The position numbers and the translations under genes were made by a program. Positions 16,381 to 38,500 of a stretch of DNA of 64,000 bases are shown here, piece by piece (position 1 is the first letter of the stretch; the number at the start of each line of letters is the position of its first letter). This stretch comes from an uncultured Planctomycetales bacterium (GTDB lineage: Bacteria; Omnitrophota; Gorgyraeia; Zapsychrales; Zapsychraceae). The DNA lies in contig CAYIMR010000001.1 of assembly GCA_964364455.1 (NCBI GenBank), positions 2,403-66,402 of the forward strand, given 5' to 3'. Below the pieces are notes generated by a model. The model was not told the DNA's origin. It ran no database searches and was given only the letters and a program-made list of their open reading frames with translations.

Positions 16381-16437
16381 TCATTGCCCCTAAAGGCGCC
16401 GCCCCACCCGGTATTCTCGGTTGCCCGGAAAGGAGTG

Positions 16438-16539
16438 ATGAATAAAATGTTATTCGTACTGGTAACGTTCTTGATGATCGGCCTGGCTTTCTTGATCTGG
16501 ATTGCCATCGACCAATACCGCCTGAAACATCATCATTGA
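16438..16539 (+). CDS. Small hydrophobic peptide 2 (33 aa): MNKMLFVLVTFLMIGLAFLIWIAIDQYRLKHHH
   Basis: AAAGGAG Shine-Dalgarno 3-9 nt upstream of the ATG. Same TM helix plus IDQYR plus HHH pattern. Confidence 0.5.
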   Translation: MNKMLFVLVTFLMIGLAFLIWIAIDQYRLKHHH

Positions 16540-16741
16540 CCGGGTCTGCTTCGTCCCTCGCCCCTCGTCCCTCGTCCTTCATGGCCTCAAAATTCGGCGC
16601 GTTGGTCTTTCGGGCCAGATCTTCCTGAATGCCGCCCTGCGCCAAGACGCCCAAAGAAGCCGTTCGGATTGAGCCGAAGGTTAAGTTGACGAGAGACCGC
16701 GGATATGTTATAGCTACACTGTTAAATCGGGAGGTGGGATA

Positions 16742-16843
16742 ATGGGAATATATATTTTGCTCGGCGGGTTTCTTATCTTCGCGCTTATTATCGCCGAGAT
16801 CGTGATCCGTCAGGACAGGGGCCGCCATCATCACGGAGCTTGA
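16742..16843 (+). CDS. Small hydrophobic peptide 3 (33 aa): MGIYILLGGFLIFALIIAEIVIRQDRGRHHHGA
   Basis: GGGAGG upstream of the ATG. Third paralogue, with a more diverged tail (RQDRGRHHH). Confidence 0.45.
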   Translation: MGIYILLGGFLIFALIIAEIVIRQDRGRHHHGA

Positions 16844-16967
16844 TCCGCGCGATCCTTCTCCGATCGAGGCCTTCTGCGGCTTAAATATAATTCCGCCTTG
16901 ACCATATCTCTCAGACATGTTAGGATTTGACGATAATTTAGAGTAATCTTTAAAAGGAACAGAAAAG

Positions 16968-17207
16968 ATGAAACGATTAAAAGTCTTTAATAATGACCAA
17001 TGGCTGACTAAGCACTTTAAAGAATTAGTAGATAAATACGCTGGTGGATTCATTATCGCGGTTAACGGCAAGATCGTATATACCAACAAAGACGGCTCAC
17101 CGCGCGATTTAGGGAAACGCGTCAAAAGAGAATTCCCTGATGCTACGCCCTTGTTTTTCCGAGTCCCATATCCCCATGAATTTATATGCGCTCTAATCAT
17201 TCTATAA
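16968..17207 (+). CDS. DUF5678-like small protein
   Basis: In the ORF track: MKRLKVFNNDQWLTKHFKELVDKYAGGFIIAVNGKIVYTNKDGSPRDLGKRVKREF.... AAGGAACAG sits upstream of the ATG. From memory this family is typically paired with a retropepsin-like protease. Confidence 0.6.
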   Translation: MKRLKVFNNDQWLTKHFKELVDKYAGGFIIAVNGKIVYTNKDGSPRDLGKRVKREFPDATPLFFRVPYPHEFICALIIL

Positions 17208-17587
17208 AATTCCCCTACAAAACCTACAATAACATACCCTGTCCGATCATCACTCTTGATATCCGCAAAACGGCCATTGACGCCTATATCGATTCCGGAG
17301 CTTTCTACTCTATTTTCTCCATCAAGGAGGCTGAATGGCTCGGCATAGACTACACCAAAGGCAGGCAAGGCGGCGCTATGGTAGGGGACGGAAATATAAT
17401 TCCAGTATATTTTCATATCCTCCCTATAAGTATCGGCGGGATTTCCCTCAACGCCACGATAGGATTTTCCCCCAAACTTAATATCGGCTTCAACCTTTTG
17501 GGCAGAAAAGACATCTTCAACCGTTTTGTCATTATCTTCGATGACGCCAAAAGAAGTGTCACGTTGATTCCCCGCAAACACCAATAA
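17186..17587 (+). CDS. Retropepsin-like (retroviral-type) aspartic protease
   Basis: In the ORF track: ...IITLDIRKTAIDAYIDSGAFYSIF... carries the D-S-G-A catalytic motif. The ORF overlaps the DUF5678 ORF by 22 nt in a different frame, suggesting translational coupling. Confidence 0.65.
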   Translation: MRSNHSIKFPYKTYNNIPCPIITLDIRKTAIDAYIDSGAFYSIFSIKEAEWLGIDYTKGRQGGAMVGDGNIIPVYFHILPISIGGISLNATIGFSPKLNIGFNLLGRKDIFNRFVIIFDDAKRSVTLIPRKHQ

Positions 17588-17599
17588 TTCTTCAGCGCC

Positions 17600-20500
17600 G
17601 GCGAAACCTGCATTATTTCCATTCGGCGCGTTGGTCAGACGCTCCAAAGCTTCTTTATTACCAATTTGCGCCAAGACACCCAATTGCTTGGCCGCGACAT
17701 AAACGATCCCCGCCGCCGCGACGAATGTTCCGGCAACCGCGTACGCTCCAACGCCGATGGCCGCCGTCGCAACAGCCGCAACACCCAGGCCGAGCAGGGT
17801 TTCAATCGTACCGAAGCCGGATTGCCGGGGGTCAATAACTGGGCTGGAACTCTTGCCGAAATTGTTGCTCTTAGCAGAATTTTCCCTTTTTTGTTTCAGG
17901 GTTTTTAAGGTTTCTTCATCCATGCCCATCTCAAACGACGGGTCATCCACAGGGGGGGAGGTTTTCTTTTCTGTGCCGATAAGGCCCAGGACTCTTTGCA
18001 GGTTGTTTTTCCAATTTTCAACCGCCCCATCCACAACATCCTGAGAAACATTTTTTATCGTAAAGAAATCATCAATGTCCGCCATCTGCCCTAGGATATC
18101 TAAATTGCCGATCGACCCATGCTGACCTTGCAAAATACCGGCCTTGAGGATAGCGTCCAAATTCCGGAGGTAATTGCCTCGCAACAACGAGGCGTACGCA
18201 TCCGGCGGCATACCCAATTCAGCGACGACGCCCCTTAGGATTTCCGGCCGCCCTTTATCATACGCGTCGAAGAACAGCGACAAACGGCGGTAATCCCCGA
18301 CCGGCAGGCGCATGACCACCCCGTATCGGTCAAACAGCGGCAAAACGCCGATCGTGTGCCGCGTTAACCGCCCGCCGCGTGAAAGCACCCGGCGTTCCCT
18401 TTCCATCATCCGCGAGATGCCTTGCGGGGTTTCCAACCCGACAGGTGTCCCGGATTGAAGCTGATGTTCCCAATCAAGGAATATCCCCGGTTTGCCGACG
18501 TGTTCTTTAAAAACAGTCGGCTCAAAGGTATCATTGAGATTATGCTTCGCGTAGCCTGGCGTCCCGGCGCCTTTAAACTCCAGGCCAAAGGCTTTGTGTT
18601 CTTTAGTCCCTGAGCCTTTGAGTTCTTCCCCTCTCGTGACAATAGCCCCTTCCTTATTGACACGGATCACCGCCGGCACCGGCAATAAAATCGACCGCCC
18701 GGCGATGCCCAGCATCGGCATCGTAAATGGCCGTTGTTGGGCGTCCACAACCCTCTTGAGCCCGAATCTTTTATACATCTCCTCGTCATTTAAGGCTCGT
18801 ATATACCGGGCCTGATGTAATAACGGCGCGCCTTTTTCGATTTCATAAGCCGGGCCAGCCAAAAACACAAACGATCCATTTTCATTATCAAGGACCCCGC
18901 TGAACTCCTCCGGCAACTGAACACCGGCGGGAATATTCCACCTTGACCCTTTTTTAACATAAACGTCGGCATCCAGATGCAAGAACGGCCTGCCGTGTTT
19001 GTAATATTTCCGCCCTCCTGTTTCTGGATCTGTAAATATGCCGGCCGCCTGATTTGTCAGGGCCTCATCCCGATACCGCCCTGCCACCTTTTGAAGGCAC
19101 GACAACTTTTCAAGATCAAACACCGGGCTGGAGGACTTAGACTTTCGGGCAACAACGTAATAATCAGAGTCATTGAAAAGCTCTACGCTGTATCGCGCGA
19201 ATAATGGATGCATCATCCGGTGGATCCGTTCTTCTGTCTGGAAGAATGTCCTAAACCACCCTCGTTCGGCAAAATGCTTAACAACCGCCGGTGCCAACAG
19301 CCCCTTCCTCCATAACCCCTGCAGAATCAAGAAAGCGGAAACCTTGTAAACGCCCCTCACATAACCGTTCGTCCTTGTGTAATGGCTCCAGGCTTTCTCC
19401 CTGGCCAGGAAGTTGCCGATAAACGTGCCGCCCGGCGCCAGCCTCCCTGCCATCATGCCCACCGCTTTGTCTAAATCAGAAAGGTGGAATAACGTGTCAA
19501 GCGAAACAACAACATCCACACCGCTGATAAGCTGAAGGACCCTGGAATCATAAATATCCATATTTAAGACAGTCACCTTGCCGGCATTGGGGCCTTGGAT
19601 CCTCTGGCGCAACCGCACCAATGCCTCGGCGTTGACATCCACCGCGTATATCGCTTTCACATTTTCTAACGCCGCCACCTTTTTGGTGAGCCCGCCGGCG
19701 CCGGATCCAAAATCAGCGACAACCAGCTTATCCCCGGCTTTTCTCACCTCTTCCACGGTTCTGTCTTCAAGTTTTGTGTGCATGCTAAAAATACTCTTTT
19801 CCGGCGTCACATCAAAAACACGATGTCCTTTACGCTCAATCCAATGAAGAATAGTATGCTTCGGCAAATCCTTAACCGGACTGCTGGTTACAGACACCTC
19901 TTTGATTAATTGAGCAAGTTTCTCCTTAACTTGAGAATCAGAAGCTGCCGGCGGATGAATATGGTCTATTTCCTCTTGGAGCAGGATAGTATACCCTGAC
20001 ATCTCGTTAACACCATAACCGCCTAGCATCTCATCGGGTTTCCTCTTGGACCTCGGGAATAAATGCGCACGCACCTGTCCATTCCCGATATCGACCCATT
20101 TGATATCGATCATGTTTTCCGTAATTCCACCGGAGAGCAATTGTTTAATCTTCTTGCTGGCATTATAGATAACCTCTCCCATCATGCCGCTGTAGACAAA
20201 ATTCACCGCAGGCCAATTAGGTACCTGCTGGCCGGCCTCAGAAACTAAGTCGACAACCTCCCTTTTATCAATGGGGAAGCGCCCTAAGAACCCTTGGAAA
20301 TGGGCATGATGTTTAATAGAACGCCCGGGGCCGTTCCAGTAAATGGTAGCATGAGGCATCACCACGGCAAGAAGCGCGCCAAGGCCCATAACCTTATTTA
20401 ATGATGGCTGAATGCCGTGTTTCCGATAGGCGATTACAAAACTCGGCGTTTTCCTTGCCTCATCTGTCCCCCAGAAAAATGGATTGATATACATTGCCCA

Positions 20501-23500
20501 ATCCTTCAATCCGGAATGGAACCGGCTTAGATCAATACCGCGTTCGGCCAACGGCATATAAGCCGCGCAGAGATTACATTTGCCATCTCCTTTAAAACGA
20601 AGATTAAATACCGATTTTAAGACCAAATCTCTCCATATCTGTTTAGCCGCCAAATAGGTCCCGTAAACAGTTTGCCCCCTGATATTGTTAAAAATATTTA
20701 AGATACCTAATGGGTTCTCAACAGATAAACCCTTTGCGTAATCAGCTCCACGATGTGCGGCATAAACGATTTGATAATCGTCACCGACAGGATAGACTGT
20801 AATACCATTTTCTAATTGCTCTTTTGCAATAAATCCTGCCGCAAGCTGCTGGCGGACCAGGTCCCTAAACTTTTCTTCTATCGTATTCCCTTTAAGGGGC
20901 CTTATCGCATTCCATAATAGAACCAAATTGTTTTTACTAAATATATTTAACGGGCTTGAGGTGTTATCATTTAATATCGGCGAGCTTATGACAGCTTCGG
21001 CATTATTGTTGTTTTGATGATCAAGTTCCTTACTTAACCAAGCATACACATTCATGTAATATCCCAAGCTTCGGTCCCAGCGATTGTCTGCCTGCATGGC
21101 ATTGGTGATCCTCTTATCCCAATTCCTAGGATTGTTTTTGTAAATATTAACTGCCCTCTCAATCGTTACATAAAGCTGACCCGTATTAATAGCCCGGCGA
21201 CGGATGTCTTCTTCGGGTGTGGCAAACGTTCGGCTGACCCCGGCAAAAACAAATCCCGTCGGCTTAGAACCAAGCTCAGCAACCGTATCGGCTAAGCCAC
21301 CGGTTTTGCGGACCAACGGAAGCGTCCCATAACGCATCGCTATCTGCTGATTGATACCGCTGGGCTCATAATCCGAGGGTACAAGAAGCATATCTGCCCC
21401 AGCATAAATCATCCGTGCCAGTTTGTCGCTAAAGGCCTTCACATAAACAGTCCGTTCCAGAGAATCTTTGCCCGCTAATTCAGCCAAATCGTCCTCAAGC
21501 CACTTTTCTCCCGTCCCTAAAATAACCAGATCAATACCTAAGCGTTCTTTTCGCCCGCGATGGATATCATCAATCATGTCGGCAAGGATATCGAACTGTT
21601 TCTGGTCGACCAGCCTTGAAACAACTCCAACCAGTATCCTATCAGGATGGCCATGGCCTAAGTGGCCGTATTGTTTATCCGTAACAAGGCCGATTTCCTG
21701 AATCCCGCCTCTCTTGGATAAAAGTTTCTTTAACACATCCTTGTTGATATTCTTGGCCTTTCGGATATCCTCAATAGCGTCTTTACTGATATCATAATTT
21801 TCCGCAAGCGCCGTGTCTGTCGCGGGGTTCCAAACCTCAAAATCAATCCCATTTAAGATCCCGCCAAAACGGTTGGAGACATCCTGTAGAAGCCTATCGA
21901 TTTCAAAATAGGTACCCCTGATTTCCTTGGCATAGGTTTCACTGACCGTGTTGATATAATTGCCCTTGCCTCCCAAACGCAATATCACCTCAGGGACTGT
22001 TGCCATAAAATTCAATCTCCCCGACTTGACGATAAAAGGCTCTATATTACTCAACCCGATCTCCGGCAACCATTCCACGGGATACTCGCCTTGGTATCCA
22101 ATATTATGAATGGTGAAGATACTCCCTGTCCGCGCGAAATAATCGCCAAATCCCGACCGCATATAAAGGGAAGCGAGGGCGGTATGGTGGTCGTTTGTAT
22201 GGATAATCTCCGGTCTTATCCCCAGTTGTTTAAATAATTCCAAGGCCCCGCGCGATAACAAGATCGATTCATAAAATTCTGTTTCCTTCCCGGAATATGG
22301 ATTAACAAACATATCTTCACTCTGAGCCACAAGCATATACACCGTAATGCCGTCTATGGCAGTCTTTTTAACCCTGAGAATTTCATCTTTCCTCCTATTA
22401 AACGGTATTTTTATTTCAACCCCCTCAACATCTTCAGCCTCATACCTCTCTAATTTCTCGACCATTGAGGCAAAATATGGCATAACAACACTCACATCCT
22501 TGCCTGCCTTGGCAAAGGCTTTAAATAATTCATGCATAACATCACCTTGGCCGCCTACTTTCACTAAAGGTCCAAATTCCATGCCGATGGCGGCAATGCT
22601 TCCCTCATATTGCTGCATAATTCCAACAAAACCATTACCGCTTTGTAAATCAGCCCATTCCAACTCTCCGTCAATTCCTTTAAAGGCAACCGTGTAATCA
22701 AAACTATCCGCGGAATTCATTTTAAGTTCATAGACTGCACGGCCATCCTCACGGTTTTCCACAAACTCAAACGGCGTTTCAAAGAATTTCCACGGGCCCT
22801 CTTCATTGCTTAACTTATACCAAAGCCTCACATCCCTATTGCCGTCAACATCCCCTCGATTGGCAATGGTCCGTAAAGTAATATTACCGCCTGCCGCACT
22901 CTGCCACACACGGCTTGCCTCTTCGATATATCCACCCCTTAATTCATCCGGCAGTACCACACCCAGACTTTTCGTCAACTCCTTATTTCCGATCATCAAG
23001 CTCCGCTTAACATTTTCCTGCAACACATAATTTAAGGATTGTTTAAGGCCGTAATCCTCCTGTATTTTTCGATAGAGTATCCGGCGGGCATCTTCCTCGT
23101 CCAAATGCGATAAAATCAAATGGCTGATTTCGTCAAACATAACCATTTTTAAAGCATTGAGCAGATGAGATGCGTATTGAATGTCCTTTTGTAGCTCATC
23201 AGGGATTTGAAGAAGCCGGTAAGATAAATAGATCACGCCTTCCTTGATATGGGCCGCATGCTCGGCCCGGCCGTGAAGCCGTATTGATACTGTCCTTTCT
23301 GATTTTCCTTCATCGTCTCCTTCAAAGAACATTTCTTTATGGCCCGGAAGCTGCTGGTCAAGGGCATATATCAGCGCCGATTCAACAGCCTCTTTAATCT
23401 TCGGCGTACTATCGCCTTCCACTTTGACTGTTATTTCCCCCGCCTCATTCATCTCAACCATTGCCTCTAGCGATACCCTCCTCTTTCCTGGCCACCTCTT

Positions 23501-26500
23501 CGCTTTCATCGGAAAAACGCCTTTTTCTTTCTTCGAAGAAATCTTTTGAACCGGTGAGGAGGTTTCTGCTTGTGGCAGGCCTTTGGACTGGACCAAAACA
23601 ATGTTGGAAATATAGCTGAAAGATCCTCCCGTCCATCCCATAGTGGTGGTTAGCTTATCAGTTTTAAATCCTAGTTTTTCACCATAGTCTGCCAATGTTT
23701 CAAAATCAACCCTGTGCGTGATATCGACCGAGGAAACTTGGCGGCCGAAAAGGCGTGTTAACGGCAAACTGATATTATAAACATAAACACTGGGCTGTCC
23801 GGGTTGCGTATAAACGTCTTCGCGCTTGAGCTCTCCGTAATCCAGCGTAATAACGTAACCGCGCCGCAAGGCACGGGAAACCTCTTTATTCCATCGCAGG
23901 GCCTCTAAATTAACCGCAAATTCCGTCCCTTCAGGAGGGATGACCTTATCCGCCCAGTTCGCAAAATACGCGGCAATGGTTTGATCGGAGATTCCTCCCT
24001 CAACTTCTTTATAAGTGCCATCTCTGTAATCGACATAAATTTCTTTTAGCCTACCTTGCCGGACAACCACGCGGTGGACAGGGAACGTATCCAAGAGCTC
24101 GTTGGAAAGGAAGATCCCCTCAACGCTTTCATCCTCAAACGGCAAATTCCTGGCTGAACCATTAAGAAGAGTGACCTTTTCTTTATAATCTTTTGCCTGT
24201 AGTTTTTCTTCGACTGTCTTAAGAAGTTCGGGGCTGATTTCCACATCGACGCACTTGATAGCGTTCCATAGATCTCTGTAACGGGCCTCCCCTTCCAGGG
24301 CCTCCATGAAATTCACCATAAGACTCCCGTCACCGCCGCCCATTTCGACAACTGTAAATTCATCAGGGCTCCCCATGTTCTTCCAATATTCAAAGATCTT
24401 AGCCACAACGCTTCTTATCCTTTCTTTATGCTTCGAATCTGTTTCAAAAGATATGTCCCTGTGGCCTGTGTAATAAGCACCTTCTGCGTAAAGAACTTCT
24501 TCCTGGAATTTGTCAAAGGTCATTACCTCGCGTCTCTTGACCTGAAGTGCGGCCTCTTTGGCCCTTTCCACCGGAGAAGAAGAGCCTTGCCGAAGGTTAT
24601 CTGCGTTATTTTCTATGATAATTTTCGTATCACGAAGGAATAACCTTCCATTTACTTTTCTGAACTCCCCTCTTTCGATGACGACAACGATATCTTGTCC
24701 TTCAGAGAGCGTGTTCAAATCCACTTCCATGCCTGTGTTGTTCTCAATTTCTATCTCTCCTTCCAACTCGGCATCCTTTAAGTGCACCACACCCTTAATC
24801 TCTATTCCCTTTAATTTCGCCACGCTGGCCCGGCCAAAGGCATTGATGACATGCATTGCATCCAAATAGAACTTGTCATGCAAATTAAACAGCGGCGGCG
24901 CGTGCCCGGCATACCTGTCCTCCAGCATCCACTTCCTCCGATTCAATTGATAATAATCACTATAGGCCTGCAGCCAGAAGTCAATGGCAAACTTAATCGG
25001 CGTAAAGAATTGCGTTCTTCGGGTGACATCAACATTGACAATTCTTAAAATTTTATCCACCTGGTATCTCTCTAAGATCGCTCTTACCATTGGGTTCTTG
25101 CTCGTCATAAAATAGTTGTGAACGTTCAAAAAGACAGTCCCAATTGGCCCTTCTAATTGAATATAATCCTTACCATCTTTTCCTTTTTTATCCGCAACAA
25201 TGAGGTCTGGCGCGAATATCTTTTGCAGCTCCTCCATGTTGCCTTCAAATACTTCGCTTCGTAAATCTTGTAAAATCTTGGCCAATAAACTGTAATTGAT
25301 AAGCGCGATGTTGGTATTGAAGTACTGCGCGCCTTCCTCTCCTTCTCCGCCTTTTAAGCCCACTTCCTGGAAAACCGTTTCTTGTTGATTATTCTTCGCT
25401 GAATTCAACTCTAACATCCTCACCGTTACTTTCCCGTCCGCTAAAAATTCAACGCCGATCATGCCTCCCTTGCGATCAATACCTGTCTTGGTAGTGGAGA
25501 CCATCACCAAGGGGACATTGCGCTTCAACATCCATTCCACAATATATCGGTCCGGCATATTGTTGGTGCCATCGCCATTATAAAACGCCACCACGATATT
25601 ACTCTCTTCAGACGCATAATCATGATCCAATGCCCCTCTTAAATACTTGAATCCCCATTCTCCGTGACTGGCCGAAGATTCTCTCGCGTAGGTCGCTTCC
25701 TTTGTCTGCGCATCCAGCGAGGGATAAAATGGCGCCACCTGCATCCTTACCTCTATACCTGACTCATCAAGGATCTGTTTATAACTGCGTTCCTCCGCGA
25801 TCAGTTTGCCCTCTAGCAGATCCGGCAAATACGGCCGTTCTAACAACGTTTCGTAGGATGGCTTGGAATCGTCGCTGACAATCGGCTGGAATACCACTTT
25901 CCCGTGATACTCTCTTCTTTGAACTTCTTGAATTAATCGCAATAACTTCACTTCTGCGACGCTTACGATCTTCTCCCCATAGATCCCTTCAAATCCAAGA
26001 TCCGTACCCTTGGCCCCCAGTTCGTTTCTTCCCCAGAATTTTTTTACATAACTCTCGCGTTCAAGGCTTGTTCCTAATCCGGCATCTAAATTCCCCAGCC
26101 TGATCTCGTAAACTCTTTTGGCTTCATCTGCTCTCATTTCCTCGACAATAGTTTCATAATCCTGGGCCCCTAACAAATCCCTGCGCTGATCTTCCGTCAA
26201 CAATGCCGAAGGATAAAAATTCCCCTGGTTATTTCTGGTTTTAATGATCAATTTCGGACGGTCAGCGGACGGGTTCCGATACAATCGCAAGAATGTCTTC
26301 CACAGATCCCTGCTGTAGTTATCCAATCCCCGTTGATCAAAAATTCTTTCAAGAGATTCATCGTCTTGCGCGTCCTCAACCGGTGAACTCGCGGCCGGCC
26401 CCATCAAATCAGCCAATAACCTCTTCACCTCGTCTCTGGCCTCGCCGGCAAGCCATTTCTGAATTCCTTGTTTGACCAATTCTTCGATGTTGGCCGTTCC

Positions 26501-29500
26501 GACGCCCGGGACACTGCGGATGACATTGACCTTGTGATCGTAAATATGGGTGATATTGACTCCCGTTTCCTGCAAGCTGTTGACCAACGCTCTTTCCAAC
26601 TCATCGAGCCTGTGGGCGGCGGCCATAATCCTGTCGCTGGCCCCCTCGCCAAAGTGGATATGCATGTCGATGTCACTGCCCTCAACCGCTTCGCCGCTTG
26701 GCACGGAACCGGCCGCGTATCCGCCGCGGATAAGGTCAGAACCGAACTCCTCTTGTAATTTTTTGACAAGGGCAAAACCTGACAGGGAGAGAACAACCGG
26801 ATAAATTCTTTGCCCCCACGCGGTGACGGCAGATTTTCTGATACTCTGGATGCCGGAGGCGTCGTCGTAGAGCTTGATGATTTCTTCTTCACCCGCCTTG
26901 GCGGCGATCATTTCTTTGATAACGCGGGCAACCTGATTGAAGTTGATCGGAGAGGAAGATTCTGCGGAAATATTCTTCTCTGTCCCCTGTGCTCCGTTGA
27001 AGCTGTAAACGACACCTTGATGGCGGGCGACTTCGGAATGCCAGAATGCCTTGGATTCTTCGACGAGCTCGGCGACCCTGCCCTTGAACTTGATCCTGGC
27101 CCGCTTCATCTGTTCCATGGCCTCATGATTGAGGCTCACGTTGACCGGCACGTATTTTCCATCCTGGGTGTAGAGAGGCAGGGCGTTGTAAAGGAGTCCG
27201 GCTTCCTGATGAACGCGCTTCTTGATGACTTCTTTGCGGTCCAGATCGCCCTGCGGAATGCCGAAGCTGTTTTCAACCAAATCTGAAAGCGCATTTTCCG
27301 CGAATTCCGCGACCAATTCAGCGCGGATATCCGTGTCGATAGTGATATGGAGCCGGTTCTCCACGCGGGCGATCAGCCAGTCGACCTGTTCGGCCGACAA
27401 GCGGACCGGCGAGGAAGACATTATCATCTTATTTATCCTATCAATTGTTTCCGGTATCCATATTGTCAACTCAGCGGCATTCAGGGGCAACTCACGTGTT
27501 TTTGTGCTTTCTAAAAAAGCCATAAGTTCTAATTCCAAACTTGTTGATTTACTCTCTGACGCTTGTAGTAACGCTCCGGGGAATCTCCTGTCATCCTGTC
27601 CGATAATATCCCCGTCTTTGCTCTTGACCAAAAATTTCCCGCTTTGATAATCGGTAACTACGACCAATTCTTGACCTGTGACGATAATCGTCCTGTTTCT
27701 TTCTTGCCCCTCATAATTTCTATCGACATTAACCGCAACTTTGATGCCTCCATAGTTAAATGTAGCCTTTGCTCTTTCCCCATTAGAATTCATTTCTGCC
27801 GCAAGCCGTGTCGGACTTCTGGTCCCCACCAAAACTTGAAGTACGCTTAAAAGATGCGGCAAAAGGTCCTGCACCACACTGACCGTTAGGTCTAATTTTC
27901 TTCCCTCCAGTGGATTTAACATGTTCAATTCTATTTCTTTGATTTTGCCAAAATTGGCACTGTGGATTGCCTGCTTAAGCATAGTAATAATCGGGTCATA
28001 CATGTACTCATACCCTACCGCTAGGAGGCGGCCACGTTGACGCGCCAATTCAACTAATTCTGCGGATTGTCCTTGTGTCGCGGCTAGAGGCTTCTCAACC
28101 AATACATCTTTGCCGGCTAAAAGCGCCTGTCTGGCCAATTCATAATGTGATGTTGATTCTGTGGTAATAATCACCACCTGACTATCGGGATTCTCTAATA
28201 CTTCTGTCCTGTAATCTTGGACATTGTGGATTCGAACGTTGCTTGGCAAGTCTTTGTGCTCCTCCCATTGAGGATAGTTGGATCGGGCGAAACCACGAAC
28301 AATAGAATATGGGAAACTCTTGGATAACACATTCAACATCACCCCACCGCCCCAACGGCCAAGACCCACTAAAGCAATTTGTTTGATTCCAAAATATCTT
28401 ATAGCAAGGCGGTCAAGAGCCGCAGGCTCGTTGATATCTCTTGCTCCCTCTAATAGCGGCTCGATTAATGCGTTCAAATTAAATTCAAAACGCGTACAAT
28501 CCGGACACTGGCTAACATCATGCTGCCATTTTCTCTGATCGCGCCAAATGCCCCAGAAATCAAAATTATCATTATTAATATCTCCCATCCCAAAGTGCTT
28601 AAAGTCTTCAATAGAAACCGACGTACATGGATAAACCTGGCCCCTTGCGCCAATCACGGGGATAAACTTGCAATGCTGGCATTGCGTAAACGGTTTCTCC
28701 GGCTGGTGAACATCGTCTTGCCGGATAAGGATATTGATTTTTCTCCGGCTGAATTCACGGGCAATGCCATTAATTTTGGCAATCATAATATCGGCAACAT
28801 TCTCATCGAGATCAAACTCTTTATTCTGGTGTGAGGGTTTAAGCGGCGCGCTAAAACGAATAGCATCAACACCAGCATTATCCGCCCATTGGATAATCGA
28901 GCGTAACTCATCCCCACCGCTGTTCCTTTCATTAAAAAGGTAAGTAATTTCTACGCCTAGCGGTGTGTTCCTGGCCTGACGTAATTTTAGCAACTGCTCC
29001 ATGTTTTGAATAATCTTAATGAAAGCCTTTGGATCAACAGGACGATGTGTCTTCTGATAAGACTCAACCGTTCCTGCGTCCAAGCTGATTCTAACCAAAT
29101 CACCTTTGGCAGCCAAAGAGGTGGCCACATCAAAAACTTTCTCCCCATAATAAAAATTACTGAACAACTTAAAGATCATCCCGGATTGCTTTATAGCCGC
29201 AATGACTTCTTGTATCCTTGGATAAACTAAAGGCTCTGTAGAATTACCAGATATAATGATACGCTTGATACCTTTGCCTTTCAGCGAACATATAAAGGCA
29301 ATTAATTTATCAGGTTCAATGCCTCTTTCTTGATTCTTCTGTAATGCAACTTTATCCTGCAGCCTCGTACACCACACGCAATAATTGTTGCACCCCATTT
29401 TTTGGGAAGCGTAATAAGGGTGAATTTCAATCTGTAACGGTTTCTCCGGTGTCTTGCCCTGGAGAATATCCAACAGGCCATCGCGGTAATCATGCATAAG

Positions 29501-32500
29501 CCACTTTAAGCGAATCGTCTGTTCATCAAGCCTATCTATTGGGGATGAGACCCTTGAGTTGCGATTATAATCTTCTGCTTTCATCTTCGGCAGATGAGAC
29601 ATTTGGGCATCGTAGGTACTGAATTGTATATAACTATTCTCATCCGGGATGGCTTTGCCATCTTTATCCTTAACAACTAATAAATCATTCACATGAACAT
29701 CGGAATCCTTAACATCCGGCACGAGGATCCAAAGCAGTCCGTTTGCCCAAGCCTTAAGTTCACTTTTCAATTTCTTCTGTCGATCTTTAAGCGCGGGTAA
29801 TCCTTCGCGTGGAGATTTCAGCCCTTCCGGCAAGCCATCTTCTATTTGGCTAATAATATTATCAGCGTCTCGCATAAAATTATTCCTAAGAAGCATCTCA
29901 ATTTCTTTCTGCGTTAATTCAATATCTTTCTGAGGTCTGAAACTATTACGCTGAACAGCAATCTTTCGGATAAACCGCTCATAATCATCCGGGGATGCCT
30001 TAATAAAATGCTCCAAAACGGTTTTATCGGAACCAAGCCCAAGCATACGCGCCAACAGGCTGTTGGGTGTAGTCAACATGCCCCAATCATAGAAGCCGCC
30101 GTTAATCATGCGCATGACCGGCCAGTGCGTTAGTTTCCGCAACATCTTTCGTACGGCCCTATCGGATATGCGCTCCTTATCCCCTAACATATTGAGTTTC
30201 CTCAATACATTACTTACCACCTCAACCCATTTGCCTTCCTTCATATCAAGCATTTTTGCCAGTTGGTCTTCGGTAAAGGTATAAATCCTATCCTTATTCT
30301 CTTTATCGGTAAGGAATGCTAAAAACTCATCTGAAGCGGCAATACCATATTCTTTAAACTTGCTGCGCAACTCATCAACTGTATATTCATGCAACGGCTT
30401 TTGCACATATCCTTGCGCGGCATCCTTGACCATAAGCAAATCGAAGAGTTTTCTTCGGGCTTTTTTCCGGGCACCGAAGCCATTGTTTGCCGCTATTTCA
30501 ATCAGCTCCACACCAACTATCACGCCCAGCCCGAGAATGAAGCACCAAAGCATGTTGATATAAATACCAGCCAGCACGGAAACCAACCCAATGCCTCTTA
30601 CGGCATTCTTGGCAATTCCTTGCTTCCATAACGGCACGATCATGTCCCTGGCAGACCATAACCACGACCGGACAAAGCCGCCACCGACATCCTTGGCCAC
30701 GGCACGATAATTCCTGTCAGATATAAATTTGATCAACAACGGCAGAAGCATCGTGACATCACCCAAGAAGAAGAACAGGAACAGGACAGCCGTCATGTGC
30801 CTTTCGAACGTCTTCTGCGCGAAGAACCGGGACATCTGGACCCTTGGTGTCCTGTTAAACCTATTGCGCAGGCCAAGCACTGTGAACCCGGCGTGAACCA
30901 CAATTAACCCCTTAAGAAGCCATACGGGAACAAGACTAAAGCCAGACCACAGTAAAAAGCCGAGACTTAGAACTGTTAGTAAATTGGCCCCCCAGTTCGT
31001 CATAGGTATATTGTAAACCGCCCTTGGCCTAAATAGATGCGGACCTATAATATATGCGAATACAAGCATCAAATAGAGAAATGCGCTAGCAAGGAATACT
31101 ATTGGATGATACGGCGCGAAAAATAAGATCAACGGTATAAGGACCGTGCCAATCTTTGGCCCCAACGTAAAGGTCTGATAGACATCTTTCGTGAACCGCC
31201 GGTCAGCTGGTGTCAAACGTTCAGCCGGGAGGAACACATCTTTACCTTGCACCGTATCCCTGGCAACGGACCAACCATAAAGCGGGTGCACGGATGTTGA
31301 AAAGATGGCGGCAGCGGGCTTAAAGAACAAGGCATTAAGGAATTTAAGGAATCCCCAAGGTGCTCCATACTTGGCATTCATCAATGTAATCAGATTTTGT
31401 ACAATGGAAAGAGCCAGGACAAACCCGGATGTCACAAAGGCGCCGGCAAACGGGAAGGAGTGAGCTGGATCGATAAACAGCACGACCTGCAATAAGACGA
31501 ATGTAATGACATTCACAAGAACCAAAGTCTTGAGCCCCCAGAAAGCGCCCGTGTTAAATAAATGCGTCCACTTCCATGATGTCGGCCCCTTATTGCTTAA
31601 ATTGAATAATTGTCCCAAGGTGTCATGTATCATTTCATAGTTATCCGCTGCGTATTTACTCTCAGTTCCCAAATCAGATTTATAATCCGTAACCTTAGCC
31701 CCACCGATAAACATCGCGTGGTTATACTTCACGTGGATGCCCTGGCCAAGCCCCAACAATGTCAGCGTTAAATCTTCGGCGTTTCTCGATAGAGGCGCAA
31801 TCCCGTAATTAAGCTCGTACTCTTCTTTGTGCATGTATTTGCCATATTCACCCACCTGCCCTGTGGCATTCATGAAGGATTGAACCATCATCGTCCAATT
31901 GGATTCGTTAAGATCTTTCGTGCGCGCCACATCGCTTAAGTATTTATCTGCGACATACATGGGGAAAATAAGCCCCATCGTATTGGATTTAGAAAGCTCA
32001 TCAATATCGTTGACAATCCACATACCTTCTTCCGGCTTGACCTCCATGATGGCGTCCATGCGCATGGAAACGTCAAACCGGTACCTTGAGAAGTTCGCAA
32101 TCGTCGTAGCCTTAAACGCGCCCGTCATCTCCGGCATACTTGCCGGCCCTAAGAGCCACGTTGCATCAGGCGCTCCCCTAAGTCCATCATTCCCAACCTG
32201 GGAGATTAAAATTCTGTTTTCCGGACGTGCAATATAGGCCGGGGCTCTGGAATCCGGGGCCGGAACAATGACGGTAAAGGCAAAGAATTTCTCGGCTACC
32301 CGCCGATCATAAAAGAGATCAAATTGCACAAATTCTTTTGCACGTTTATACTTAGCCAATAAGCCAGACTGAAGGACAACCGTTCGTTCATCCTTTGTTA
32401 ATAACATTAATGGCAACCATCCTGTTCTTGATATAACACCCTGAAGTTCTTTTAATCTGTCTTCCTTAAATATGTTTGAATTCCTGAGAACATTCAGCAT

Positions 32501-35500
32501 ATTCAAGGCTAATTTTCTTCTCGCATTTCCTTTAGACAAAGGCCCGTAGAACCGCTTCAATTGCTGATAGCGTGCGTTATAGAAACTGTATTCCGCCACG
32601 CTGCGGAAACCGGCAACTTCTTCTTTGATTCCCTCAAACGTCCGGTACAAAGTATTAAGATGCATATTCGCCCAATGGATCATTTGTTCCTTAACATGCT
32701 CCGCTCTTTCTTTTGAATCTAATTTTTTCTTAAGAGTTTCTATAAGCGCTGCCCCTTCAAAGGGAGTCTCGAATCTGGCGTGTCGCACGATATCCCTTAT
32801 TTCTTTTTGTGTTTCCGAAGAGATGGCCGGGCCCACCACTCTCTCGATGTCAAAAGTATCCGCGAATTTATGCCACCCATCATAAAAGAGATTAACCACA
32901 AGATTGTTCATCTCAGTTGGATATGCCTTTAAAATCCTGTCCCATTCTTTCTCCAGTTCTAATGAATTATTCAAGCCCTTTAATTTTGCTTTTAAGTCTT
33001 TGATGTCTTGCCCCTCTTCTCCACCCTTTTGCTTTAATTCATCCTCAGCCTTTTTAAGATCATCTATGGCTTGCTTAATCTCAGATGCAATCTTTTTTGC
33101 CTTACGCTCATCTTTATATTTAAAAGCTGTCCAACCGGTCATTTCTTCGTAAGACCAATCATGCCTCTCCTGATACCCAGCATGATAAAGTGTCGTAACT
33201 GGCCTTTCGGTCCATTCCCTGAAAAGCTCTGGCGTGTCTAAGTTGTAGAAGGATCCCAAAATACGTCGTATGCTGTCATGGAACTTCTCTTCATATCCTT
33301 TCGGCTTAACGTATTCGAATTTCAATAAGTTCTGCATGGCGATAGTATCGATAGTATTGTTACCCACTTTCGCCATAGACTTAATACGGTAATTCCATGA
33401 TTCCAGGGCACGTTCCCGTATCATCTCCGCATTTAGGCCATGTTCCGCAACCTTGTAGTGGAGCACATGAATGTTGTTGTAGAGCTCAAAAATACGGGTC
33501 AACCGCCACGTCCAATAACTTAATAAGACGATAAGGACAATCGGGCCGATAAGCGGTAGCATAACGGAATAGAGTGTAGCCATAAAGAACAGGCCGTTTA
33601 TTCCGATCTGGGTAAGGAGAGCAAGCTGAGGAGCGACAGAAAGAACATACCAAGCAGCGGTAGCTAGGGTCGTAACGCCGGAGACTATCGCGAGCCATCT
33701 GTAGAGATGCCGGTTAAACCATGCTTTGACCTTTGGATCATTTAATGACTTAGTGTCAGTTTCTTTGTTTAACTCAGCTTTGATGGCTTCCAGGGCATGT
33801 TTGATCTCGAAGTTGTGCCTGATGTAAAATCTCCGTTTTTTCTCAATCTCGCGTTTGTTAACGACAACCTGACCTAAATACATACCACCACGGAGCAAGA
33901 AGATAAAAGATAATCCTAATACAAAATGTGCAGGCAAGGCAACAAAGGTAAAGAATAATGTCAAATCAAAATAACCAGCGGTCAAACCAGCCACCTGCGA
34001 TAACACCGGCATGCTAAAGACCCACGATAACAATGGCACAATAATGTTGATCAAGGCTGGCCAGGACAGTGACGCCCTAGTTGTCCTTGCTGCCAATTGA
34101 TAAACGAATATGGCCGAAATGGCCGCCACTCCTGTGAACCATAGCGGCCATCCCAATGCCGCGTTCAAGCCGTAAAATATGATCCCGGCTAGTCCGACAG
34201 CAAGGATTTCTCTGGGCCATGGTACAATGCGGCCGTATTTGTAGTAATGTTTGACGCCAAAATCATCTTTTTTGACAACATCATCAGACCATGCCTTCTT
34301 CTCCTTCTCTGAAGCCGTATACTCCTTCTTAAACGTATTCAATAACTGATCCAACATGCCGTCAAAATAGCCGACCGGCTGTATCTTCCCTTTAGACTTC
34401 CTGAAGTCATAATCCACTTCATCGCCATTCTTTTCGGCTTGCCGTCTTTCGGCCAAAAGTTTCATCTTGGCAATCAACAAGAATAAAGTAATGGCAAACG
34501 GAGGCACCACCGATAAGTAAGAAAGCCCGAGCGGAAGAACGCCGGCAAGTAAGCTTACATACCCCAGGGCAAGGCCTGATCCGATGAAGCCGGTGAGCAA
34601 GACAGCGAAACTGAAGAAGTTTGCCATCAATTTGATAGTCCTTGTGACATTGATATATTTTGTCGGACGCGTGAAGAACGGATACTTGCCCTTCTTCATG
34701 CTCTTGATAAGATAGGGCATAAACTTATTGTCAATGATATTGCGCATAATCAATTTATGCAGGTCGGAGTTGCCCTTTATATTGTATTCATTATGGTGGT
34801 TAGCCCCTTTGGAGACCTGGAGGAAGGCCCGGATAAACGCGTGGCCCGGGAAGGCATGCAGAGCATTTTGACGTCTTGCCTCTTCGTATTGTTCTTTGAT
34901 GTTTTGATCAAGGCCTTCAAATCCATTGGTAATATCGGCTAAATCCTTCCACGTCAGCCCATAAGCGGCGAAAGGTTCATCATAGTCTTTGTGCTGCAAT
35001 AACCGTGTCATGAAGAATTCTTCCAGGTAAATCCTCCATATCCAGTTATCCGCAAGTCCTTTCCGTATTTCAACGGAAATGTTGTCGTATTCGTAATTCA
35101 ACGCATAGAGGACATTGGAGGTCCTGTTAACAACTTCCGGAACGATTTGCTCATATTGTCCCTTCCCTATTTTGTCTTCCGCCAACTTCAACAAGTGCCT
35201 CGTCCAGGCCACCTGTCCCTGCATATTCCCTGTCAGGTAAAGGAACATTTCCCGCAAGAAGAATTCCTCGTAGGAAATTTCAAACCAGCCCTCATAAGCC
35301 TTAGCACCCCTCGCCTCTAAGGCATCAATTTCTTCCTGGATGCGCTGCTTTTTCAGTTCATTCGTTTCCTTTGCTAATCTCTCTTTCAAAGTGGCCAATA
35401 CGGCGGATTCATAACTGCTATCCGAGCGCGCCCGTTCGACTTTCACCCAGAACAGGTCGTCAAAGGGTGAATTCTTAACGTTTCTGTCATCGTGATATCC

Positions 35501-38500
35501 GTAAACTCTCTCACTTGCCTTGGCCTCATCCGCAAAACGGGCAATAAGCTTAGACATGATTCTGTCAGAAATTAAATGCTGCAGGACATCAACACCTTTA
35601 TTCCCTTTGTAGTTAACAAAATTCATATCTTTAACTTTAATTTCCACAGCACCCGTTAACCGGTCCAAAAGCAGCTTTTGCGTAATAAGCCCTTTGAGCT
35701 TTTCTTCTTCGGTTTTTATTTGTGCACCCAAATCCTTGGATCGATCCGATTCCTTGGCCTCTTTACTGAATTCCTCTTTCAGCTCACGCAGCCTTGCACC
35801 AGATTCCTCGACTTGATGGACAATCTGTTTCCAGCGTGCCATCTGTTTATCGCTGCTTGTCCCCTTAAACCTCCAAACATCAATCTCTCTACCATCTAGT
35901 AAGACCTGCGTTGCCTTGTGTGCATCATCCAAACCATATTTCTGCGCCAATTCTTTAAAGATCGGTTCAAAAATGACTTTTGCCACATCTTGATAAATCA
36001 AACGCCCAACGGCATCCAGGTTCATGCTCTTAGGAAGTTCCCCATTGTTCGAACCTTTAACAGTGTTGATAACCTGCCTGAACTGCTCCCTCACCCATTC
36101 GGCATTCTGGTACTTCACCCCGATATTCAAAATATTTACTAGTCCGCTGGCGACATTGGCAATGTAGGAGGGATAACGCTGTTCAATGATCGCCTCAATT
36201 TGCCTGATTGCCTGAACGGCGTCCCCGGTCCGCAAGGCATTTTCAATCTCGGCAAAGAATTCATCGACACTGATTTGCTCCACCGCACCCGCCTGTGAAG
36301 TTTCGGTCTTCTTCTTTAGGGAAGGCGTGAATAACCTCTTTATCAGCTTGCCCATTTTCCAAACGAAAATCAGCACTATCCCTATGCCAAGGGCGATAAA
36401 GGAGGCCCCGACAGGCGAAATTCCATCCTCCGCTGTCATCAGCTTGTATTTCTCAACGAGATGATCCCTGTCTTCTCTCACATCGTTAAATCTCGTCCCC
36501 TCTCCCTCGCCAAAAGGACGATAATCATTATCGACATATCCCGCATTTTTAGGCGCTGATCCCCCGGTATCTCCATTGATCCCCGTGCCGTTATCAAATC
36601 CGTAGAAAGCGCGCACTTTCCAAACCACAAAATCCCAAGCGGAAGAAGCGATCTCTTTGATGTGGCGCACATATTGCGCCGCAAAGTTATTGACCCAGAA
36701 CCGGTCATAAGCTTCAGGACTTAACCTAGAAACAACTTCATCCGTTTCTTTGTTATAGCCCGGAACGGCTTGGGTATCTTTTGTCTCGGAACGATATTTG
36801 TTCCAATAGATCTTCATCAGCTTGCCATTAAAGTAAGTACGGTAAGGGATCCCGGTAAAGTCAAATATCCAATCGGAATTTTCTTCTTTGAATCTGCGGT
36901 AATCTGCCAGGAACTGGAAGGTCTGAGGCGTGGCATCCAGCTCATAAACATCCACGACGCCCTGGACATAGGTGCCATCCGGATTACGTCTTGGGACAGC
37001 AATAGAAATCTTGCTGGGTTTCTCTACGGGCAATTTAACGCCAAGCTCATTCTCTAAGATCATAATTTCGCTTGGTTTGTTGAAGCCATGATCGTATAAA
37101 CGCTGTTTTTGCGGCTCAAATCCGAACCCTCTGTATTCATTGTATAAAAGACGGCCGTCAAATCGCGTGGCCATTGTTGTCAAGGCGCGCTCCCCTTGAC
37201 GAGGCCGTTTGTCGATAACCTTATACTTTATAACAGCTTGGTCATGCGGGCCGTTTTCAATGTTTACATCATAAGAACGGGCAACCCAATCGCCATTGAA
37301 TATCCTTATCTCTTCACCTTTTTCATCAACTCCAAGACGGCTGTAAGCATTGATGTCCTTGATAACCTCGCCTTTTTTGTTAAACTTGACGTTATACGTG
37401 TAGCTTCCTCCGGCGATATCACGCTGTTGCGGGAAGCCGGCCCCGAGAACCGCATCTGCTGGGCCATTATTGAAATCCATGAAGGTGACGGTCCGTGCAA
37501 TGCCCGTGGCGAACTGTGTTTCCTTATCTAAACTATTATGATCTTTTATTCTGGCATATAATCTTCCTGAACCGAGCTCAATCTCCTCCCAAGCATCCAA
37601 GGTAAAGTCAAATTTTATAATACCATTTGTTTTCTGAATAAAATCTTCCAGCAGAATGTGCCATGAATCCTCATCTGTCTTGTTCAAGGCATTCGCTAAC
37701 TCTTTAGAAATATTACCCCGCTTGACAAAGAAGTATAACCGCCGGTCCTCCAAATTCGTATTAGTAGAGAAGGTATAAACTTTATCTTCTCTATCAAACG
37801 CGAATGTCTTGGTTGCTATGTCAAATGATCCGTATTTTAATTTCCCACGTTCGACGCCTATTTCATAAAAACTATAAATGCTCAATTGAATAATAAACTT
37901 ATTCCCTTCAAGATATCCAAAATGCTTTTCACCTACATTACCTTTGCCATCACGGACTTCTTGATAATTAACTCCACTAATAAATTTACCCTCTTTGTCG
38001 TTAAACAAATGTTCCCCTTGGTATCTGATTCTTTTGTTAACGTCAAACAGCTTAGTAATATCCACATTATTGATATCTGTTATGATGCTGCCATCGGCAT
38101 ACGTCAGCCAACTGCGGTCGATCAAAAGGCCTTTAACCCATTTCGTATTCGTCTTTTCGTCAACATACAGGAGATCATCCTTTTTCACTTCTTCAGAGGC
38201 CGATACAATACGGACCAAATAGGTCTCCGAATGGCTGGCCATGTCGATGGCGCCCGGGACGCCCTCGTAAAACGATTTGGTCACTTCGTTGGGGAAGAGG
38301 TTGCCTTGGGCATCCACGCGGCCTTTATAGCTTTCGATAATCCGGCCGCGGCCGTCTTTGACGATGTGCCGGACGATGCCGAGGAAGTCTCTTTCCATCC
38401 GGATACGCAGGGTGCCGTCTTTGATGCCCTGGGTCTCCGACTCGGAATAAAGCGTGTCTTCCCTCGCCCCCCGTTCATTCAGAACGTAGGTTTCTTCCGT

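Follow-up and report, generated by a model that had tools for sequence, protein, structure and literature searches.

A fused radical SAM and Gfo/Idh/MocA cassette as a candidate nucleotide-sugar tailoring pair in an Omnitrophota-type giant protein

Results

A two-domain cassette lies inside one 21,333-codon reading frame

We analyzed a 64,000-nucleotide stretch of contig CAYIMR010000001.1 (assembly GCA_964364455.1, positions 2,403 to 66,402), hereafter called the window, with a focus on a radical S-adenosylmethionine (SAM) domain, or rSAM, that is followed in the same polypeptide by a Gfo/Idh/MocA oxidoreductase domain (Gfo). The whole window is covered by a single minus-strand reading frame, which ends at base 64000, is free of stops from base 64000 to base 2, comprises 21,333 codons, and is open at both ends. 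Residues are numbered along this frame, with aa i beginning at window base 64000-3(i-1), and all features are given in window coordinates on the minus strand unless another strand is named. The frame was absent from the program-made list of open reading frames (ORFs), because the lister skips ORFs that run off the window ends. The possibility that so long a frame is an artefact was rejected, since the Pfam modules share one frame throughout the 64 kb, and the window thus holds a fragment of a giant multi-enzyme ORF (2..64000).

The rSAM-Gfo unit spans 706 residues of this frame (aa 11489-12194, 27419-29536). It is bounded on its N-terminal side by the linker SSPI (aa 11485-11488, 29537..29548) and on its C-terminal side by the linker SSSPV (aa 12195-12199, 27404..27418), which lies within the string MIMSSSPV (aa 12192-12199, 27404-27427). 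What we observed here are two identifiable domains with intact motifs and defined cassette boundaries, and the two families are recurrently fused in other proteins as well. The original prediction, made from the sequence letters, had described a radical SAM CxxxCxxC motif, CQHC...C and CPDC clusters, a Rossmann module, and MIMSSSPV as parts of a giant fusion protein; all of these strings were present on the minus strand with correct coordinates, and both domains are internal modules of the one 21,333-codon frame. MIMSSSPV, listed there after the Rossmann module, is not part of the enzyme and turned out to be one copy of a recurrent linker between cassettes.

The N-terminal half is a radical SAM domain with an auxiliary cysteine set

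As supported by Pfam, AlphaFold2, Foldseek, and alignment A1, the first half of the unit (aa 11489-11873, 28382..29536) comprises a radical SAM domain and a putative C-terminal, Twitch-like auxiliary-cluster subdomain. The Pfam Radical_SAM profile (PF04055) matched the isolated module with 32.6 bits (E 1.1e-7) and the same region within a 5,000-aa chunk with 30.5 bits, a narrow margin over the gathering score of 29.5, which bore out the radical SAM assignment. The CxxxCxxC motif reads CNNYCVWC (29369..29392) within MGCNNYCVWC (aa 11535-11544, 29369-29398), and its cysteines C11537, C11541, and C11544, the predicted ligands of the SAM-cleaving [4Fe-4S] cluster, were at least 90% conserved in A1. 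This pattern occurred once in 21,333 residues versus 2e-5 expected, and a chance cysteine pattern was rejected on this ground. The 373-aa rSAM module holds nine of the 22 cysteines of the ORF (0.4 expected), in a frame with 0.10% cysteine whose first 11,152 residues contain a single one; other large rSAM-bearing proteins (P0020, P0037, P0040, and P0050) contained 0.9-1.5%. SGNSTEP (aa 11584-11590, 29231..29251), the counterpart of the 'GGE' SAM-binding motif, was aligned with SGG-LEP of DesII in the profile alignment, with S84, G85, N86, T88, E89, and P90 invariant in A1, and an R-x-S-L-D-A block was invariant or nearly so.

The auxiliary set consists of C11774, C11792, C11832, and C11835, with C11777 in addition (28496..28681), in the spacing C-x17-C-x39-C-x2-C with CQHC at aa 11774-11777 and CPDC at aa 11832-11835. 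In A1, C292 was invariant, and C274 and C335 were at least 90% conserved; C332 was kept in the subclade of the window, while the other subclade has a non-cysteine residue there and another cysteine a few residues upstream. These five are the only cysteines downstream of the rSAM core, and three or four of them are conserved, whereas a SPASM domain has seven and two clusters. The SPASM profiles also stayed below threshold (PF13186, 16.7 bits versus 21.5; TIGR04085, 19.4 versus 27), and SPASM membership was rejected on profiles and cysteine count. The auxiliary Fe-S domain of the original prediction therefore stood as a cysteine-ligated extension and fell as a SPASM domain; as judged from the residues, the number (four) and spacing of the cysteines would be in keeping with a Twitch domain that holds one cluster. 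By profile, the match to the Twitch region of BtrN (4M7S) was weak and non-significant (E 0.24).

The AlphaFold2 model of the rSAM half, built on the family alignment, reached a predicted local distance difference test score (pLDDT) of 87.6 and a predicted template-modelling score (pTM) of 0.89, with alternating strand and helix elements and a confidently modelled auxiliary region. Foldseek matched it to many radical SAM structures of the PDB with probability 1.00, in agreement with the domain assignment. DesII (TDP-4-amino-4,6-dideoxy-D-glucose deaminase/dehydrogenase; 8HZV, 8HZY) came first with six chains (E 1e-12, TM 0.65-0.69; 8HZV, TM 0.67-0.69 over ~400 columns), followed by SkfB, SuiB, BlsE, MoaA, PqqE, viperin, and AbmM. 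The family profile searched against PDB sequences also gave DesII as the top match (E 1.7e-7), for which the profile was needed, as phmmer with the single rSAM sequence found no match in PDB.

DesII is thus the nearest solved relative of the rSAM half, and the proposed likeness is that of a radical SAM enzyme attacking a ring C-H of a nucleotide-sugar to give a keto-sugar. The differences are considerable: identity is 15-18% only, the DesII equivalog model TIGR04426 scored 27.6 bits versus 450 and covered only the N-terminal core, and the window family lacks the long N-terminal extension of DesII, is fused to a dehydrogenase in the window, and has a conserved C-terminal cysteine set for a second cluster that is not known from DesII. 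The rSAM domain of the window perhaps works like DesII, and is not a DesII orthologue.

No curated NCBIfam model reached its cut-off. The best matches were the tungsten-cofactor maturase model W_rSAM_matur (52.7 bits versus 380; E 3.5e-14), TYW1 (36.6 versus 318), and MoaA (36.1 versus 231), which brings up the reading that the rSAM domain, like TYW1, MoaA, viperin, or the tungsten-cofactor maturase, acts on a free nucleotide, a tRNA base, or a cofactor precursor instead of a sugar meant for a polymer. MoaA and viperin are also among the fold matches, the same giant protein contains HD/RelA-SpoT and nucleotidyltransferase-like cassettes, and JGI names homologues 'wyosine synthetase (radical SAM superfamily)'. 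That name is a superfamily-level label, and we rejected TYW1 as a name for the family. The scores are far under their cut-offs, the TYW1 match is limited to the generic SAM-binding segment, and the obligatory partner is a sugar-type dehydrogenase, so that a nucleotide or cofactor substrate appears improbable to us.

In a word-indexed search of 5.8 billion proteins, 17 rSAM relatives were found, and the 14 strong ones (E <=1e-52) were stand-alone proteins of 285-475 aa, the best being 54% identical to the window. When 1.84 billion cluster representatives were searched exhaustively with the profile, 54 were returned at E <=1e-30 and 1,958 at E <=1e-10, which indicates that the rSAM family proper is small and lies within a larger clade. 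It is a rare and uncharacterised family. From the intact and conserved motifs we infer that the rSAM domain is a functional enzyme, its activity and cluster content being deduced in the same way. One could also regard the module as a decayed, non-catalytic remnant that serves as structural filler, considering that its Pfam score barely exceeds the threshold and that much giant-protein sequence has no known function. The cluster ligands and SAM-binding motifs are all intact and conserved, nine cysteines were retained in an otherwise nearly cysteine-purged protein, the model is confident, and the module is 54% identical to stand-alone enzymes; we find such decay hardly credible.

The C-terminal half is a Gfo/Idh/MocA dehydrogenase

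The second half (aa 11874-12194, 27419..28381) was assigned by PF01408, NCBIfam, and Foldseek as an NAD(P)-dependent dehydrogenase/ketoreductase of the Gfo/Idh/MocA family, and PF01408 scored 70.8 bits versus a gathering score of 24, confirming the Gfo/Idh/MocA module that had been proposed directly after the radical SAM domain. The Rossmann motif IALVGLGRWGGG begins at aa 11875 (window ~28349-28378) and contains the dinucleotide-binding motif GLGRWG (aa 11879-11884, 28349..28366), of which G6, G8, W10, and G11 were invariant in alignment A2. The EKP motif (E11969/K11970/P11971, 28088..28096) was likewise invariant (E96, K97, P98), and we take its lysine to be the catalytic lysine known for this family. 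The substrate-binding domain carries D12045-x3-H12049 (27854..27868), with H176 invariant in A2; the aspartate was identified in the window sequence itself and in the A2 blocks. The profiles for the C-terminal domain remained sub-threshold (PF22725, 19.3 bits versus 27; PF02894, 11.7 versus 22.9), but the fold matches GnnA over its whole length, which argues that this domain is divergent and not absent.

The best NCBIfam models for this half were PRK10206 and UDP-GlcNAc 3-dehydrogenase, all below cut-off (NF040723, 70 bits versus 450). Foldseek of the cassette model placed GnnA (7BVJ/7BVK) on top, with TM (target) 0.80-0.85 and a root-mean-square deviation of 3.3-3.8 A, followed by scyllo-inositol dehydrogenase, 1,5-anhydrofructose reductase, and others. 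GnnA is the nearest structure and not an orthologue: the window domain shares the Rossmann, EKP, and DxxxH motifs with GnnA/WbpB-type enzymes, but is only 18-19% identical to GnnA and ~30% to WbpB-like proteins, and belongs to a small separate clade. The close members of that clade are P0162-P0165 (42-47% identical) and P0166, with the signatures GLGRWGGG and ARSNY. Beyond it, identity drops steeply to ~30%, to proteins named in their sources as UDP-GlcNAc 3-dehydrogenase or fused WbpB-WbpD-type.

A cyclitol or free sugar might also be the substrate, in which case an IolG-like inositol dehydrogenase would be paired with a BtrN-like radical dehydrogenase; this reading departs only slightly from the nucleotide-sugar model set out below. 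Besides the scyllo-inositol dehydrogenase structures, the Gfo half matched the inositol 2-dehydrogenase model TIGR04380 (E 6.8e-17). BtrN has one auxiliary cluster in a short C-terminal domain and carbohydrate-type substrates, as we predict for the window, and its cysteine spacing, C-x17-C-x44-CxxC, resembles the C-x17-C-x39-CxxC of the window. The BtrN match itself is non-significant and BtrN is outside the top 50 fold matches, GnnA ranks above the inositol dehydrogenases, and the fusion partners in the wider clade as well as the neighbours in cis are nucleoside diphosphate (NDP)-sugar enzymes. We judge a cyclitol or free sugar to be a poor candidate.

The two domains form one unit and recur together

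The AlphaFold2 model of the complete cassette (aa 11489-12194) had a pLDDT of 88.2 and a pTM of 0.72. Between the two domains, a short helical connector (pLDDT 66-78) runs into the first Rossmann strand with no disordered stretch. No copy of the linker motif was found at the junction near aa 11873. An independent assembly (L013, ENA ERZ2470813 NODE_5438) matches window 17104-29032 over 11.9 kb at 99.57% identity, differing by 22 mismatches and 20 gaps, and its first ORF continues through the rSAM/Gfo junction in one frame. The flanking linkers, the lack of one at the junction, the model, and this read-through together indicated that rSAM and Gfo form a single unit.

The same order was found in P0166, a partial protein from a Zixibacteria metagenome-assembled genome. 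BLASTP aligned it colinearly with the window cassette in a single alignment spanning the junction (E 2e-62), which took in the CxxC at the end of rSAM; the Gfo part was 52% identical. The reverse order was found in a 3,789-codon frame (contigs L015/L016/L018; start codon not mapped), with Gfo at aa 616-930 (32% identical) and rSAM at aa 935-1310 (42-46%), followed by CofD- and HAD-type modules; L016 is 99.9% identical to L023, a contig of Elusimicrobia bacterium RIFOXYA2_FULL_50_26. A stand-alone gene pair, of the kind that the original prediction had proposed to look for, was also found: on L006, rSAM (48% identical) and Gfo (38%) are separate same-strand genes 1.2 kb apart, with an assembly gap in the spacer. 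Finding two proteins fused in either order, and split as well, is a classic sign of joint function. The pairing, seen across three phylum-level labels, looks obligate from these comparisons, yet the link is not universal. In P0020 (MDD5356031.1, Candidatus Omnitrophota, a 1,396-aa partial protein), the rSAM is 41% identical and is also followed by a UDPGP cassette, SSSP linkers are likewise present, and the place of Gfo is taken by a region that has no Pfam hit and looks cupin-like by eye.

Genomic context and fusion partners of the relatives

At L001, L007, L008, and L014, the closest stand-alone rSAM homologues (53-54% identical) come immediately after GT5/GT1 glucan-synthase-like genes. At L001 (8269-13896), the rSAM gene is located between the GT5/GT1 gene and a gene for a secreted MBG/Ig-like/Kelch surface protein, with overlapping stop and start, and at the near-identical L014 a 1,545-codon frame occupies the surface-protein position; L007 is arranged similarly. 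Contexts of this type may point to glycan tailoring of a surface protein. The contexts of P0012, P0013, P0008, P0024, and P0028 were uninformative. In the wider rSAM clade (nearly full-length profile matches at E 1e-24 to 1e-55), members are fused to a DegT/DnrJ/EryC1 aminotransferase (P0029, P0055), a sugar-phosphate NTP_transferase (P0081), or an SDR epimerase/dehydratase (P0153), and the remaining annotated fusion partners are a methyltransferase and a TIR domain. The fusion of DegT and rSAM mirrors DesI and DesII.

The surface-protein neighbours bear on another reading, in which the rSAM domain is a peptide or protein maturase like SkfB, SuiB, or anSME, acting on the giant protein or on a neighbouring secreted protein, with Gfo as a passenger. 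Large surface proteins do occur near rSAM homologues (the overlap at L001, the 1,545-codon frame at L014, and L020 and L021), an auxiliary cluster is typical of such enzymes, SkfB and SuiB were found at Foldseek ranks 7-12, and the 35 copies of a conserved serine-rich motif in the host protein would be a possible substrate. The SPASM maturases (anSME, SuiB, PqqE) share with the window the radical SAM core and a C-terminal cysteine-rich Fe-S extension and are second-tier fold matches, but the window has 4-5 downstream cysteines, sub-threshold SPASM profiles, and no peptide-recognition domain. Neither a recognition domain for ribosomally synthesised and post-translationally modified peptides nor a precursor-peptide gene was detected. 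Moreover, DesII ranked above the maturases by fold and by profile, the fusion with the same Gfo clade occurs in three lineages and in both orders, members of the wider clade are fused to sugar-nucleotide enzymes, and family members occur in genomes or contigs where giant proteins show no sign, e.g. in Nanoarchaeota. We consider a maturase unlikely. The 'maturase-like' label of the original prediction was accordingly not upheld, with DesII nearest and SkfB/SuiB second, and of the two targets it had offered, sugars are better supported and the protein itself less so.

Three side observations concern the distant members of the rSAM clade. P0043 is a TIR-rSAM-SPASM fusion. The clade (P0043, P0029, P0037, P0040, P0050, and P0107) is also represented within other proteins several thousand residues long, with up to three copies in one protein. 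In P0037, one rSAM module comes right after a region that appears cupin-like by eye.

A recurrent serine-rich linker delimits the cassettes

The motif S-S-P-[IVLAM] (consensus [S/A]-S-S-P-[V/I]) occurs 35 times in the ORF, as compared with 0.96 expected from composition, and the two boundaries of the rSAM-Gfo unit are among these copies. The codons of the copies vary, which indicates that the peptide and not the DNA is conserved. The copies sit between Pfam modules and bracket the UDPGP, Methyltransf_28, GT5/GT1, methyltransferase, and GlgB cassettes, further examples being at window 24583 (aa 13140) and 12559 (aa 17148). None was found between aa 3576 and aa 11485, a stretch that takes in the membrane clusters and the SLT/M23/GH2 region. 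Enrichment was seen as well in the Omnitrophota fragment P0020 (5 versus 0.11 expected) and in P0037 (5 versus 0.4), and the Elusimicrobia protein (the 3,789-codon frame) has no copy. The motif may serve as a linker, or be a site of processing or glycosylation.

Term searches of two preprints on giant proteins (10.1101/2023.11.21.568195; 10.64898/2026.06.07.730766) found no Ser-Ser-Pro or other linker motif in them, and one of the two states that the cleavage points in giant proteins are unknown. According to the 2023 survey, the lack of information on cassette boundaries and processing sites blocked structure work (10.1101/2023.11.21.568195). The [S/A]SSP[VI] motif offers practical cut points for structure prediction and for the search for processing sites, and may outweigh the cassette itself in importance.

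The linkers could also be targets in cis. Under this idea, the rSAM/Twitch domain would be a BtrN/anSME-style dehydrogenase that oxidises or cross-links linker serines, possibly after glycosylation, with Gfo acting on the attached sugar; at least two of the 35 copies read S-x-P-x-R, like the anSME target motif. If it were true, the cassette boundaries would be marked or processed, and the giant ORF would be a post-translationally punctuated polyprotein. We hold it to be very improbable.

Downstream of the rSAM-Gfo unit, a weak Pol-beta-type nucleotidyltransferase-like cassette (aa 12351-12537, 26390..26950; PF22600 E 4.8e-4 and PF01909 E 0.011, both sub-threshold) is followed by a UDP-sugar pyrophosphorylase-like cassette (UDPGP, aa 12541-13139, 24584..26380; PF01704, 38.5 bits versus 22). 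The latter is 38% identical to the equivalent part of P0020, where it also comes after rSAM. The cassettes that directly flank the unit (26960-27406, 149 aa, downstream; 29549-30487, 313 aa, upstream) matched no Pfam family at E up to 1.

A proposed role in nucleotide-sugar tailoring

We propose, with a modest preference over the other readings taken together, that the rSAM-Gfo cassette is a coupled nucleotide-sugar tailoring pair in an Omnitrophota-type giant protein, its substrate class and chemistry being deduced from relatives and context. For both halves, the nearest characterised relatives work on the C3 position of an NDP-hexose: DesII generates a radical at C3 and yields a 3-keto product, and GnnA and WbpB, the nearest relatives of Gfo, oxidise at the 3-OH. 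The fusion partners in the wider rSAM clade and the GT5/GT1 genes before the stand-alone homologues suggest the same substrate class, as do the next cassettes in cis, namely the weak nucleotidyltransferase-like cassette, UDPGP, the methyltransferases, GT5/GT1, and GlgB.

In the proposed mechanism, the giant protein, at least 21,333 aa long and anchored in the membrane, would be a chain of many whole-enzyme cassettes joined by [S/A]SSP[VI] linkers, with the rSAM-Gfo cassette as one of them. SAM would be cleaved by a [4Fe-4S] cluster bound to C11537/C11541/C11544, giving a 5'-deoxyadenosyl radical, and a second, Twitch-type cluster on C11774/C11792/C11832/C11835 would take up the extra electron or bind the substrate. 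Both domains would most likely act in sequence on the same nucleotide-activated hexose. The radical enzyme would remove a ring hydrogen (C3 or C4), giving a keto-sugar through radical dehydration, deamination, or oxidation, as in DesII, AprD4, or BtrN. The Gfo domain would then reduce the keto group, or else supply it, and the net product could be a deoxy, epimerised, or otherwise tailored sugar. Downstream in the same polypeptide, the cassettes for UDP-sugar pyrophosphorylase, methyltransferase, and GT5/GT1 glucan synthase could then draw on this sugar.

A partnership of this kind is known from the AprD4/AprD3 system, a radical SAM diol dehydratase and an NADPH-dependent reductase in the C3'-deoxygenation of aminoglycosides, in which the radical SAM enzyme makes a keto-sugar and the nicotinamide-dependent partner reduces it (PMC5461906). 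The likeness is one of analogy only; AprD4 and AprD3 are two separate proteins with a pseudodisaccharide substrate.

As to its location, the cassette starts ~320 residues past the last hydrophobic segment of a membrane cluster (aa 9194-11171) and sits in a 4,200-residue stretch free of hydrophobic segments, alongside enzymes needing UTP, SAM, and NAD(P), with the cell-wall hydrolases across the cluster. The cassette is thus likely to be in the cytoplasm, as suggested by a crude hydropathy scan and by cofactor logic, in agreement with 10.64898/2026.06.07.730766.

Several points weigh against nucleotide-sugar tailoring. On the side of the rSAM half, the best curated NCBIfam model stays at 52.7 bits against a cut-off of 380, and the Twitch match to BtrN is not significant (E 0.24). 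Some rSAM members have as neighbours large secreted surface proteins, or genes that are unrelated or unknown (L001, L020, L021, L002, L003, and L005), and the closest stand-alone Gfo relatives, P0163 and P0164 (45-46% identical), have no rSAM neighbour (loci L009-L012). The cytoplasmic placement is based on the crude scan and cofactor logic just given. In addition, no auxiliary cluster is known from DesII.

If the proposed chemistry is true, radical SAM enzymes for sugar tailoring would gain a new family, one that is fused to its reductase partner, and the cytoplasmic half of the giant protein would build a modified glucan or glycoconjugate and not plain glycogen. With nucleotide-sugars as a testable substrate class, the pairing itself has independent evolutionary support.

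The host protein and other features of the window

Along the frame, aa 4,700-7,900 contain the first Pfam modules, namely an SLT lytic transglycosylase, an M23 peptidase, and a GH2 barrel. They are followed by Radical_SAM, GFO_IDH_MocA, UDPGP, Methyltransf_28, GT5 with GT1, and class-I methyltransferases, and finally by CBM48 with an alpha-amylase and its C-terminal domain (a complete GlgB), a second GT5 with GT1, HD/RelA-SpoT with ACT, and a third, weaker GT5/GT1. Hydrophobic segments, located by a Kyte-Doolittle scan (19-aa window, threshold 1.7), a crude method that does not establish crossing parity, are clustered at aa 3016-3911 and aa 9194-11171, with hairpins at aa 15399-15437 and 20950-20997. 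The second cluster (~14 segments, 30488..36421) lies between the SLT/M23/GH2 region and the enzyme-cassette region that opens with the rSAM-Gfo unit.

GT5, GT1, methyltransferases, a glycoside hydrolase, a peptidase, SLT, and many transmembrane segments are shared by the window protein and the Archaeovorin-type giant proteins of Omnitrophota (10.1101/2023.11.21.568195). The latter are longer than 30,000 aa and have a SecA-DEAD-like domain and an adjacent secretion-system cluster, while the window protein has at least 21,333 aa in an ORF open at both ends, and no SecA domain was found within the window by Pfam scans of the frame. P0020, which is syntenic with the cassette region and labelled Candidatus Omnitrophota, points indirectly to an origin in that phylum; peptides specific to the cassette had no match in scans of GTDB genomes and of IMG/VR. 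Radical SAM domains are already known in Omnitrophota giant proteins: Radical_SAM is among the 20 most frequent domains of the 'Archaeovorin' proteins in a supplementary legend (West-Roberts et al., 10.1101/2023.11.21.568195), and PF04055 was found in 90 long Omnitrophota proteins, in a sugar-metabolism co-occurrence module with PF08323 and PF00534 (10.64898/2026.06.07.730766). The original prediction, which called such a domain inside a giant fusion unexpected, had overstated the case. Term searches of the two preprints found neither a Gfo/Idh/MocA (PF01408) pairing nor iron-sulfur or cysteine content. By these searches and the lack of a curated family model, the rSAM/Twitch family, its pairing with the Gfo clade, and the cassette-delimiting linker are apparently new. 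The published surveys list domains without module function, and one 'Radical_SAM' entry has now become a bounded, expressible two-domain enzyme.

In the independent assembly L013, the gene caller had cut the giant frame into six ORFs of 180-1,598 aa. That these are separate genes was rejected, as the 20 gaps there stand against 21,333 open codons in the window, and assembly or sequencing indels are the simplest explanation. The case illustrates how giant genes are fragmented in public protein sets.

The GlgB cassette (aa 16470-17147, 12560-14593) lies between two SSSPV linkers and is a complete, ordinary 1,4-alpha-glucan branching enzyme, so that at least some cassettes are whole canonical enzymes. 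It is ~60% identical over >90% of its length to stand-alone GlgB proteins of Chloroflexota, Acidobacteriota, Planctomycetes, and others, and since these values are flat across phyla they gave no hint of taxonomy.

The G+C content is 55-58% at window ~38000-52000, which encodes aa ~4000-8670, the linker-free SLT/M23/GH2 region, and 43-49% in the neighbouring cassettes at 20-38 kb. On the plus strand, ORFs of 300-450 aa (37886-39076, 40874-42172, 43202-44089, and 49307-50308) are antisense to the giant frame in this GC-rich part, lack support, and are probably spurious.

A further locus of the rSAM family, L004 (Logan SRR25013007_249, 3000-17335), contains seven consecutive same-strand genes, including two rSAM-family paralogues and a PPDK_N protein. 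Hydrophobic leaders that resemble one another (MKK..ILINSFLLLDIAWAG-like) open six of the seven, and each of the seven has Q/R/L/I-S/A-I just before the stop. The array looks like an unfused array of cassettes with shared terminal signals.

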